Shown: positions 8,916 to 10,706 of the stretch, in pieces
Numbering within the stretch: the first letter of the stretch is position 1
Layout of the letters: each line of letters begins with the position of its first letter
From: an uncultured Alphaproteobacteria bacterium
GTDB taxonomy: Bacteria > Pseudomonadota > Alphaproteobacteria > JALCBB01
Direction: 5' to 3'
NCBI GenBank assembly: GCA_958267355.1
Contig: OY279575.1
Location: 1,132,018-1,196,017 of the forward strand
DNA length: 64,000 nt
Notes under the pieces: model-generated
What the model was told of the DNA's origin: nothing
The model's input: the letters and a program-made list of their open reading frames with translations, nothing else
Database searches by the model: none
Translations under genes and position numbers: made by a program

Positions 8916-8973
8916 CGGGGAATTGCCTGATAATTTCCTGCTTTTCTCTGTTTTTTCTGGGCAAATTCCCCCC

Positions 8974-9002
8974 TTGCTTTTACCTGCTACATCCCGCATA
9001 AT
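8974..9002 (+). promoter_or_regulatory. Sigma70-like promoter, copy 1
   Basis: TTGCTT-17 nt-CATAAT; hexamers identical in both copies while the spacer diverges. Confidence 0.7.
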
Positions 9003-9005
9003 GTC

Positions 9006-9075
9006 TGCAACATCCCCATCGCCCAAGGGCGTTGGCTGCAGGGCCGTCTCCTTCGGGAGACGGCTCTAGCTTTTT
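9006..9075 (+). ncRNA. Putative ~65-70 nt structured small RNA, copy 1
   Basis: Between promoter and terminator; hairpin CCATCGCC-CAAG-GGCGTTGG inside a TGCA/TGCA stem, then UUCG terminator hairpin. Confidence 0.55.
9040..9075 (+). terminator. Intrinsic terminator, copy 1
   Basis: AGGGCCGTCTCC-TTCG-GGAGACGGCTCT followed by AGCTTTTT. Confidence 0.75.
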
Positions 9076-9080
9076 CTCCC

Positions 9081-9109
9081 TTGCTTTTACCCAATAGATA
9101 CCGCATAAT
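9081..9109 (+). promoter_or_regulatory. Sigma70-like promoter, copy 2
   Basis: TTGCTT-17 nt-CATAAT. Confidence 0.7.
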
Positions 9110-9112
9110 AAT

Positions 9113-9183
9113 TGCAACGTCCCCAGTGCCCAAGGGTGCTGGTTGCAGAGCCGTCTCCTTCGGGAGGCGGCTCTAGCCTTTTT
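9113..9183 (+). ncRNA. Putative ~65-70 nt structured small RNA, copy 2
   Basis: TGCAAC/GTTGCA outer stem, CCAGTGCC-CAAG-GGTGCTGG inner hairpin; substitutions versus copy 1 preserve pairing. Confidence 0.55.
9147..9183 (+). terminator. Intrinsic terminator, copy 2, just upstream of the NYN start
   Basis: AGAGCCGTCTCC-TTCG-GGAGGCGGCTCT followed by AGCCTTTTT. Confidence 0.75.
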
Positions 9184-9212
9184 ATTCCACCTAAATCCAC
9201 CTACCTATCAAA

Positions 9213-9842
9213 ATGCAGAAGAAAAAGACATGCGTCTATTTTGACGGGCATAATTTTTTCAAGTACTACCTGAAAGGCCAACCCGCAGGATACAAGTGGC
9301 TTGATCTACAAGCCTTCATGGAAAACCTTATGGGGGATGAGTACGATATCCACAAAATACACTATTTTACAGCAGGTGTTCTTGACTTCCCCGACGCCAA
9401 GGATAGGCATGGAAATCAACAAACCTATCTTCGCGCACTCAGAACACTTGATACTGTGCATATCGTACTGGGAAAATTTCAAAAATCAAAAGCTCTTCTT
9501 CCACTAGTAAAAGAAAAATCCCAACGCGCTTATGTATACGCGATAAAAGAAAAACAAACAGATACGAATCTAATCACACAGATGTTTGAAGATGCGTGGG
9601 AGGAAAAATTTGATTCCGCTGTTCTGGTATCAGCGGACTCCGACTTTGTGGCTTGCGTTATCGCCTTAAGAAGACTTTCTGGCAAGGAGATAGGCGTTGC
9701 CTTGGCTCGTGGAGAGGGCAAAGATTTACGCAAAAATGCGTCTTTCATAAAAGATATTCACCCTGGGCTGATTTGTGGCTCGCAGTTTGCCCCAACCCTG
9801 CCTGGCAGAAGAAAGCCCATTCGCAAGCCCCTTGGGTGGTGA
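9213..9842 (+). CDS. NYN domain (LabA/DUF88, PIN-like fold) putative ribonuclease
   Basis: VYFDGHN, IHYFTA, EKQTD, VLVSADSDF acidic catalytic motifs intact; C-terminal KPxxW; no obvious Shine-Dalgarno. Confidence 0.85.
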   Translation: MQKKKTCVYFDGHNFFKYYLKGQPAGYKWLDLQAFMENLMGDEYDIHKIHYFTAGVLDFPDAKDRHGNQQTYLRALRTLDTVHIVLGKFQKSKALLPLVKEKSQRAYVYAIKEKQTDTNLITQMFEDAWEEKFDSAVLVSADSDFVACVIALRRLSGKEIGVALARGEGKDLRKNASFIKDIHPGLICGSQFAPTLPGRRKPIRKPLGW

Positions 9843-10008
9843 ATTGGGCGTTTTATTACCCGCTCCTTTTTTGTGGTATTCTAAAATCTCCTGTGGGGGC
9901 GAGTGGCGACCAAGTCGTAGCACCTGTCTCTATATCGACATAAATCTCTGCTAGACCTTTAGTCCAGTTGGGTTTTTGATTAAAAATATCCTGAAGGAGT
10001 GAAACACC

Positions 10009-10706
10009 ATGACTTTACTTAACAAACTCTTACCAAACGCAAAGGGGGGGGGGGGGCATCCCTACTTTTAGTAGTATTCGCTACTTTCCTTCTACTTTCT
10101 AGTAATCCAGCGAACGCTGAATTCAAACCTTACATCGGCGGCGATTTCGGTACCCTCAAAGTAGGCTGGGCAGATGGAGAAGATGGAGGCAACTTTGACC
10201 ACTTCTCCAAAGATCGTTTTCGTAGCCTAAACTTTCATGTTGGTGCGCGTTTCACGAATCGGTTCTCTGCGGAGCTCGGGTACACAACTCTGGGCGGAAA
10301 TAAGAAAACTGCATCTGAGACAGTGGCTGCAAACACAGTCGAAGAAACTTACACGGAGCTCAAAGCGAAGGGGTTTAATATAGATGGATTCTTTCACTTT
10401 CCTATCAGTGGTGGGAATATGGAAGCACTCGCTACTGCTGGTGTGTTTCGTTGGAACCTGACGGATAAGGGGCACGGTACAACCATAACGAGCGGCTCGA
10501 GAGGAGACCCAGAACCCTTTGACCTCAAGTATAAATATACGGGGCTACGTCTCGGTGGCGGATTGCAGTACAACATCAATGAAAAATTCTCCATTCGTGG
10601 CCTGTTGCGCTACTACCCTCTAAATGGCTTCGATAGAGAAGATGCAGATATAGAAGTTCTTGACAGTGCGTGGGATGCGACAATTGGTTTCAACTTCTCC
10701 TTCTAA
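10009..10706 (+). pseudogene. Outer-membrane beta-barrel protein, frameshifted at a G13 tract (phase-variable OFF state or homopolymer sequencing error)
   Basis: AAGGAG RBS + ATG 10009; G13 at 10044-10056 gives TAG at 10069; the other frame continues ASLLLVVFATFLLLSSNPANA-EFKPYIGG...RLGGGLQY...FNFSF. Confidence 0.8.
10044..10056 (+). repeat. Poly-G homopolymer (13 G)
   Basis: Directly visible, within signal-peptide coding region. Confidence 0.95.

Follow-up and report, generated by a model that had tools for sequence, protein, structure and literature searches.

Tandem small-RNA cassettes ahead of a NYN gene

In a stretch of 64,000 nt from the genome of an uncultured alphaproteobacterium, hereafter called the window, a gene for a putative ribonuclease of the NYN (PIN-like) type is preceded by the one direct-repeat family of its region, consisting of two 107-nt copies, placed head to tail and 82% identical. 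The two units were shown to be tandem copies of a predicted, self-contained small-RNA (sRNA) gene, which has its own sigma-70-type promoter, a transcript of about 60-66 nt, two hairpins and an intrinsic terminator. RNA genes of this kind were also shown, by sequence comparison, to be the conserved genetic partner of one widespread NYN ribonuclease family. The features of the locus are listed below, all on the forward (+) strand; R1 is a covariance model, described in the next section, and the RNA start points are derived from promoter geometry, not mapped.

8966..9072, +: repeat unit 1, a complete promoter-sRNA-terminator cassette (repeat search and pairwise alignment)
8974..9002, +: predicted promoter of sRNA copy 1, with TTGCTT at 8974-8979, a 17-nt spacer and CATAAT at 8997-9002; predicted start at about A9010 (sequence reading)
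9007..9075, +: sRNA copy 1, about 66 nt from about 9010; hairpin 1 at 9016-9035 (CAAG loop), terminator hairpin at about 9038-9070 (UUCG loop), U run at 9071-9075 (R1 match of 50.3 bits, E 4.5e-14; fold; terminator scan)
9073..9179, +: repeat unit 2, a second complete cassette, 82% identical to unit 1 (repeat search and pairwise alignment)
9081..9109, +: predicted promoter of sRNA copy 2, with TTGCTT at 9081-9086, a 17-nt spacer and CATAAT at 9104-9109; predicted start at about 9117 (sequence reading)
9114..9183, +: sRNA copy 2; hairpin 1 at 9123-9142 (CAAG loop), terminator hairpin at about 9145-9177 (UUCG loop), U run at 9179-9183 (R1 match of 50.1 bits, E 5.2e-14; fold; terminator scan)
9213..9842, +: gene for a NYN-domain (PIN-like) putative ribonuclease of a HEC-09-like family, 209 aa (Pfam, PADLOC, AlphaFold2, Foldseek)
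9833..9862, +: weak terminator-like hairpin at the end of the NYN gene (consensus scan only)

In each unit, hairpin 1 is formed by 7-8 bp closed by the CAAG loop, and is followed by a G+C-rich terminator hairpin of 12 bp, at 9040-9067 and 9147-9174, with a UUCG loop, and by the U run. The predicted folding energies of the 71-nt RNAs are -37.5 and -39.5 kcal/mol (z = -5.2 and -5.9), and none of 200 shuffles was as stable. The differences between the two units are confined to the promoter spacer, to the region right after the -10 element and to the stems, where pairing is kept or improved. The original prediction, made by reading the sequence, had proposed the same units, each with TTGCTT-N17-CATAAT, a hairpin, a UUCG terminator and a U tract, as well as spacer divergence between identical hexamers and pairing-neutral or favourable stem changes; repeat search, unit alignment, folds and terminator scan all agree with it. 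Of the nested hairpin that it described, the inner CAAG hairpin (9016-9035) stands; the outer stem, CTGCA at 9004-9008 with TGCAG, is not supported: it lies upstream of the implied start at about 9010, and the family consensus contains no equivalent of it. Metagenome contigs of related strains, from three runs, give over window positions 8969-9185 a weak hint, drawn from contigs only, of a one-cassette variant, whose joint skips 108 nt, and an equally weak one of a further cassette after 9183, which would correspond to copy-number variation in the population.

For the protein, Pfam gives the NYN domain only (PF01936, E 3.2e-12, 47.6 bits against a gathering cut-off of 24.2). The AlphaFold2 model has a predicted local distance difference test (pLDDT) score of 91.3, and its best matches in Foldseek are 2qip and the MARF1 NYN domains 5yaa and 6fdl (E 2.9e-8 to 9e-5). 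Residues D11, E113, D117, D127, D142 and D144, invariant in a 20-sequence alignment of the family, are all present in the window protein. The NYN fold, together with the invariant acidic residues, predicts a ribonuclease activity.

The NYN open reading frame (ORF) begins 29 nt past the second U run. Upon reading of the sequence, no Shine-Dalgarno-like motif was seen ahead of the start codon, and no promoter belonging to the gene is evident within the 29 nt; the gene is presumably transcribed by terminator read-through. The earlier statements that the ORF starts about 30 nt after the second terminator, keeps its acidic motifs and lacks both a clear ribosome-binding site and an adjacent protein antitoxin were all borne out.

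A covarying RNA family linked to NYN genes

Along with the original prediction it had been proposed to look for a covarying motif near NYN homologs, for a match in Rfam and for dispersal of the repeat over the genome; the outcomes, reported in this section, all came out in favour of a specific RNA/NYN association. NYN relatives were looked for in 401 genomes of the class and found in 33 of them, often in several copies per genome. Two NYN genes, P0002 and P0003, are 79% and 75% identical and lie on contigs of 2.09 and 1.90 Mb, respectively. The 450-nt regions upstream of 25 of these genes were read by eye, and showed a near-identical layout each time: a TTGAC-type promoter, a short RNA starting from a roughly conserved A, a hairpin of the type CCC...GGG, often with a UUCG loop, a G+C-rich terminator and, within a few tens of nt of the latter, the NYN start codon.

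A blastn search of 61 related genomes with the 214-nt repeat returned terminator-like fragments only; sequence conservation is too low for blastn, so that a structure model was needed. RNAalifold, applied to a 29-sequence MAFFT alignment, recovered only 4 pairs of the terminator, because six divergent rows were misaligned, and was replaced by a structure read by hand on a 23-row MAFFT alignment (A3) of the upstream RNAs, from which R1 was built. The E-values of R1 are rough: one ordinary terminator reached 27.8 bits, and matches below about 30 bits need a check by eye. Low-scoring loci on the minus strand were checked in this way.

In the 23-row alignment, which is not fitted to the structure, 87.4% of the cells pair, against 70.5% upon shuffling and 44-56% when the partners are slid. 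Changes on both sides are found in 14 of the 19 pairs, and the covariation score, 0.529 against 0.232 for shuffled alignments, was reached by none of 500 shuffles. For the 81 matches aligned by R1, 94.6% of the cells pair and 18 of the 19 pairs are doubly changed, figures which lean towards the model, since this alignment is fitted to it. Both helices of the NYN-linked RNA covary. Conserved in the family consensus are an A near the 5' end, the CCC/GGG base of hairpin 1, a G-C/C-G clamp below the terminator and, in 71 of 78, the UUCG loop.

Rfam 15 produced a sole match on the window, to nadA, with 14 bits against a gathering score of 37.5 and an E-value of 8.8. This candidate NAD+ riboswitch was rejected as a chance match, since it covers only half of the model and recurs neither in unit 2 nor in the other loci. 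The equivalent cassettes of 20 and 18 further loci gave nothing at E<=1. No RNA partner of bacterial NYN genes was found in the literature searched, which did not cover most subscription journals and supplements, and the small hairpin RNA gene beside NYN is apparently undescribed so far.

The distribution of the RNA gene was evaluated at three levels. Within the 1.86-Mb genome of the window, blastn found no other copy of the repeat, and R1 found four strong matches only, corresponding to two tandem units ahead of each of two NYN paralogs; the next best match has E 1.4e-3. Two weak matches elsewhere in the genome (E 0.005 and 0.24) were taken as ordinary terminators. The second NYN gene, the only paralog in this genome, is 39% identical and lies outside the window (G000:C1:835819-836699, locus L041); it is preceded by two tandem promoter-sRNA-terminator cassettes, with a period of 131 nt and different stem sequences, and a tRNA gene is found directly past its 3' end.

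Within the class, 151 unselected genomes were screened with R1. Twelve of them had a match at E<=1e-5, and 11 of these 12 are among the 13 NYN-positive genomes of the sample. The matches fall at 20 places. A NYN ORF follows directly at 15 of them, and 2 more adjoin remnants of NYN; the remaining three are an orphan, a false positive on an ordinary terminator and a partial match located downstream of a NYN gene. An orphan RNA gene at L066 (1501-1566; G114:C1:36844-36909, minus strand), with a good promoter and no NYN gene, sits about 200 nt upstream of an ORF with a HD-like motif, as judged by eye.

At the third level, a scan of GTDB, with one genome per species, gave at least 526 relatives of the window NYN protein, and loci were counted on the best 80. 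R1 matches 72 of these 80 loci, or 71 of 79 in an independent count, obtained by removing L079, which is the same record as the seed locus L013. Out of the eight loci without a match, six have a cassette recognisable by eye, another is truncated by the end of its contig, and only L140 shows no cassette, so that an intact close NYN relative lacking the RNA gene is found once among the 80. The 80 loci include Gemmatimonadota, Chloroflexota, Acidobacteriota, Planctomycetota, Verrucomicrobiota, Bacteroidota, Ignavibacteriota, Armatimonadota, Actinomycetota and Thermodesulfobacteriota, several candidate phyla, and alpha-, beta- and gammaproteobacteria.

Transcription, dosage and spread of the module

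Promoters were scored on 106 cassettes. A match to TTGACA-N16-18-TATAAT at 8/12 positions or better is found in 93 of them, against 28 of 106 shuffled sequences; at 9/12 or better, the numbers are 67 and 6. In 75 of the 93 cassettes, the -10 element ends 3-8 nt ahead of the RNA model. Each RNA copy having its own promoter and terminator had been regarded as atypical in the original prediction; within the family, the self-contained unit turned out to be the norm.

The RNA gene is upstream of NYN and on the same strand in 60 of the 71 independent loci matched by R1. In same-strand loci the median distance from the end of the RNA match to the first aligned NYN codon is 17.5 nt, and the distance is 30 nt or less in 47 of 58. 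Such a gap is too short for a separate promoter, so that NYN would be transcribed by read-through of the RNA terminator. As judged from this arrangement, the RNA gene is shown to gate NYN transcription in most loci. In nine loci the RNA gene is divergent, being located upstream and pointing away from NYN, with the promoter in between; eight of them form one well-supported clade of Acidobacteriota in a FastTree phylogeny of the NYN proteins, in which L092 stands separate and the deep branches are poorly resolved. In three more cases (L103, L121 and a prophage of Mycobacterium abscessus) the RNA gene is downstream and convergent. Divergent and convergent RNA genes retain promoter, both helices and terminator; because these are kept outside the NYN mRNA, the element cannot be only a leader.

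Whole cassettes, including their promoters, are doubled in the window, in its paralog and in L013, L131, L141 and L043, and two RNA units behind one promoter are found in L093. Tandem Repeats Finder (TRF), run on 115 upstream regions, reported tandem arrays only in both loci of the window genome and in the E. coli plasmid; the other doubled cassettes were missed because they are too diverged. A 3,461-bp plasmid of E. coli/Serratia carries two RNA units, and in 4.6-kb ColE1-type plasmids of E. coli one promoter is followed by four tandem hairpin repeats of 29-33 nt, one terminator and NYN. The type III-like order of promoter, RNA, terminator and NYN, proposed for the window, is clearer still on the latter plasmids. 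One example, NZ_LR890655.1 (L155, 3075-3927), is mobilisable and carries the NYN module as its only cargo. Among 5,426 complete E. coli genomes, 10 have the four-repeat type, in each case on the small plasmid; RefSeq labels the locus as 'NYN domain-containing protein' only, and leaves the RNA unannotated. Judging by gene arrangement, RNA dosage is raised repeatedly in the family.

The NYN protein tree cuts across phyla. The gene family is present on 131 plasmid records, and, for the E. coli-type gene, 23 of 40 records are plasmids of 3.4-4.6 kb. In the Mycobacterium phage prophiGD43A-1 (MW584179.1; L156, 3198-3887) gene 6, annotated as 'hypothetical protein', is a NYN gene; it is located between integrase and immunity repressor, with a convergent RNA gene immediately after it (R1 51.4 bits, E 6.8e-17). 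In L054, in L067 and at the second copy in L111, the NYN gene has decayed and the RNA gene beside it is still there. Two further NYN genes, L016 (G365:C26) and L021 (G119:C1), contain one in-frame stop each (TGA and TAG, respectively) next to intact RNA cassettes, which fits nuclease decay.

The G+C content of the window NYN gene is 40-45%, against about 53% in its flanks. Its neighbours are housekeeping genes, coding for a DAO+GCV_T dehydrogenase, an outer-membrane beta-barrel fragment and DXP synthase, and no candidate for a protein antitoxin was seen among them. The beta-barrel gene (ATG at 10009) has a run of 13 G at 10044-10056, a few codons into its apparent signal-peptide end, and its long ORF resumes only at 10323; the run could be either a phase-variable tract or a homopolymer error of the assembly. 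Transfer RNA genes were observed within a few hundred nt of NYN modules in L015 (1225-1298), L023 (2166-2238), L041 (1357-1429) and L100 (3019-3092), and this proximity may reflect insertion at tRNA-linked hot spots. Taken together, the low G+C content in the window, the patchy and multi-copy distribution, the tree across phyla, the plasmids, the prophage, the match to the defence candidate HEC-09 (see below) and the decay with RNA kept make the genetics of the module look selfish or defensive.

Possible function of the RNA/NYN pair

The closest known layout is that of type III toxin-antitoxin (TA) systems (ToxIN, CptIN, TenpIN). Common to both are a promoter, a non-coding RNA, an intrinsic terminator and an endoribonuclease gene, here a predicted one, expressed by read-through. 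The likeness extends to the RNA being amplified relative to the protein, as with the four repeats of about 30 nt before the terminator on E. coli plasmids and the tandem cassettes of the window, to the adjoining position of the RNA gene in 72 of 80 loci, and to the occurrence on plasmids and a prophage; a terminator also separates RNA from NYN at the sequence level, except in the 12 divergent or convergent loci. Known type III toxins share a ToxN/AbiQ-type fold, whereas the protein described here has a NYN/PIN-like fold, with 2qip, 5yaa and 6fdl as its best structural matches. That the toxin would fall outside the known type III folds had been foreseen in the original prediction, and the exclusive NYN assignment by Pfam and the Foldseek matches to NYN structures support it. 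The RNA differs as well: it is unrelated to type III antitoxins, has a simple two-hairpin structure, usually comes as one unit with its own terminator, and can be divergent or downstream. The module, as known here from its sequence, resembles type III in layout and lies outside the known type III families. To our knowledge, only three related families of type III TA systems are known, all with ToxN-like toxins.

The window protein also matches the PADLOC profile for HEC-09 (PDLC04163, E 4.1e-31), as does its paralog in the same genome; among 14 control genomes, 5 have generic NYN genes that this profile matches as well. In the main text of Payne et al. (bioRxiv 10.1101/2024.01.29.577857), HEC-09 is a NYN candidate defence gene embedded in Hma systems; the protein alone is described there, and the terms 'non-coding' and 'ncRNA' are absent from that main text. 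As far as this description goes, HEC-09 and the window protein are alike in being single NYN-domain proteins with conserved aspartates, and they differ in that the window copy lies between housekeeping genes, and not inside an Hma system. A further case of RNA-based control reported for a defence or toxin gene is the AbiF system of a Clostridioides difficile phage (bioRxiv 10.1101/2025.04.15.648962), in which a different protein family is involved.

The preferred reading, at about even odds on the present evidence, is that the RNA/NYN pair is a type III-like RNA antitoxin and toxin, or abortive-infection module. If so, the RNA would be made in large excess, since nearly all transcripts would stop at its terminator, and the nuclease would be produced only from the few that read through. 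The hairpin RNA would bind the NYN nuclease directly and keep it inactive; upon a drop in RNA supply, caused by plasmid loss or by a phage-induced shut-off of transcription, free nuclease would cut cellular or invader RNA. A duplication which includes the promoter, as in the window, would approximately double the RNA and hardly change NYN output, an arrangement that would be sensible if RNA-to-protein stoichiometry matters. An antidote is favoured because of the much-RNA/little-protein layout, the amplification of the RNA only and the preservation of the RNA after nuclease decay.

Several observations weigh against such an antidote. Most loci have a single RNA unit, and not the repeat array typical of type III antitoxins. 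With its UUCG tetraloop and G+C-rich stems the RNA looks, from its predicted structure, very stable, whereas antidotes are usually expected to be labile. Linkage, amplification and conservation would fit a cofactor or a substrate RNA as well. No RNA gene was seen at the NYN relatives L140, L034 and L040, the latter two being weaker homologs. Finally, in the only published test of a family member, for which HEC-09 was cloned together with its native upstream region, no protection against the phages tried was obtained, as reported in the main text of bioRxiv 10.1101/2024.01.29.577857.

The RNA could instead be a positive partner of NYN, and no inhibitor. It could serve as a cofactor, or form part of a small ribonucleoprotein nuclease as its scaffold or specificity subunit, or be a dedicated substrate. 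Linkage, covariation and independent transcription fit this reading equally, and the strongly conserved CCC...GGG base of hairpin 1 and the UUCG loop point to specific recognition by a protein, which a cofactor needs too. The RNA has, however, no variable segment that could act as a guide, and the three features by which an antidote is favoured are less expected of a cofactor. On balance, a positive partner appears unlikely.

Conserved hairpins also precede other ribonuclease genes: E. coli rnc and rne have autoregulatory 5' leader hairpins, and a conserved hairpin is likewise found directly before the gene in most NYN loci. The element could act solely in cis, as a 5' leader or attenuator of the NYN mRNA, for instance an autoregulatory hairpin cut or bound by NYN, with no function as a free RNA, and its same-strand position in 60 of 71 loci, with the terminator abutting the NYN start, would agree with this. 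Unlike the rnc and rne leaders, the NYN-linked RNA has its own promoter and terminator, kept outside the NYN mRNA in the nine divergent and three convergent loci, and attenuation is not made tighter by duplicating a whole cassette, promoter included, as has happened in the window; a leader function only is therefore quite improbable.

Very little weight is given to a base-pairing regulator, which could either repress NYN translation as a type I-like antisense RNA or be an ordinary pair of trans-acting sRNAs that neighbours NYN by chance. Promoter, terminator and C-rich 5' end are the usual look of an sRNA that acts by base pairing, and tandem sRNA gene pairs exist in other bacteria. The conserved C run, however, is paired inside hairpin 1, and chance neighbourhood is excluded by the linkage across phyla. 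Moreover, cognate duplexes between sRNA and NYN 5'-coding region, calculated over about 100 nt from about 5 nt before the first aligned NYN codon, with the 5' untranslated region and the ribosome-binding site falling outside, show no advantage over non-cognate ones, at -37.76 against -37.42 kcal/mol, the cognate median rank being 40 of 71. A dispersed repeat, of the repetitive extragenic palindromic (REP) or miniature inverted-repeat transposable element (MITE) type, or a chance pair of terminators, has nothing but the tandem repetition itself in its favour, and is refuted by the blastn search of the genome, which found no further copy, and by strong R1 matches being found only before the two NYN genes.

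The RNA family is a well-supported addition to RNA family catalogues. That the RNA of about 60 nt with two hairpins and its NYN gene represent a previously unrecognised RNA-antitoxin/toxin module, and a new type III-like superfamily with a far wider distribution than the three known families, can be put forward only tentatively, our confidence falling a little short of an even balance. It is with a similar reserve, leaning slightly to the doubtful side, that we suggest for such a superfamily a range from Alphaproteobacteria to Chloroflexota, Acidobacteriota, Actinomycetota, Spirochaetota, small E. coli plasmids and a mycobacterial prophage. Annotation pipelines label such loci as 'NYN domain-containing protein' only. 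The RNA is a concrete reason for assaying the defence candidate HEC-09 again with its RNA present, and the E. coli plasmid version makes the antidote reading directly testable in a standard host. If true, the pairing of a PIN-like NYN nuclease with an RNA that is conserved in at least a dozen phyla and also carried by plasmids and a prophage would widen the type III class considerably, and would explain how free-standing bacterial NYN genes, which have no protein partner, stay harmless.

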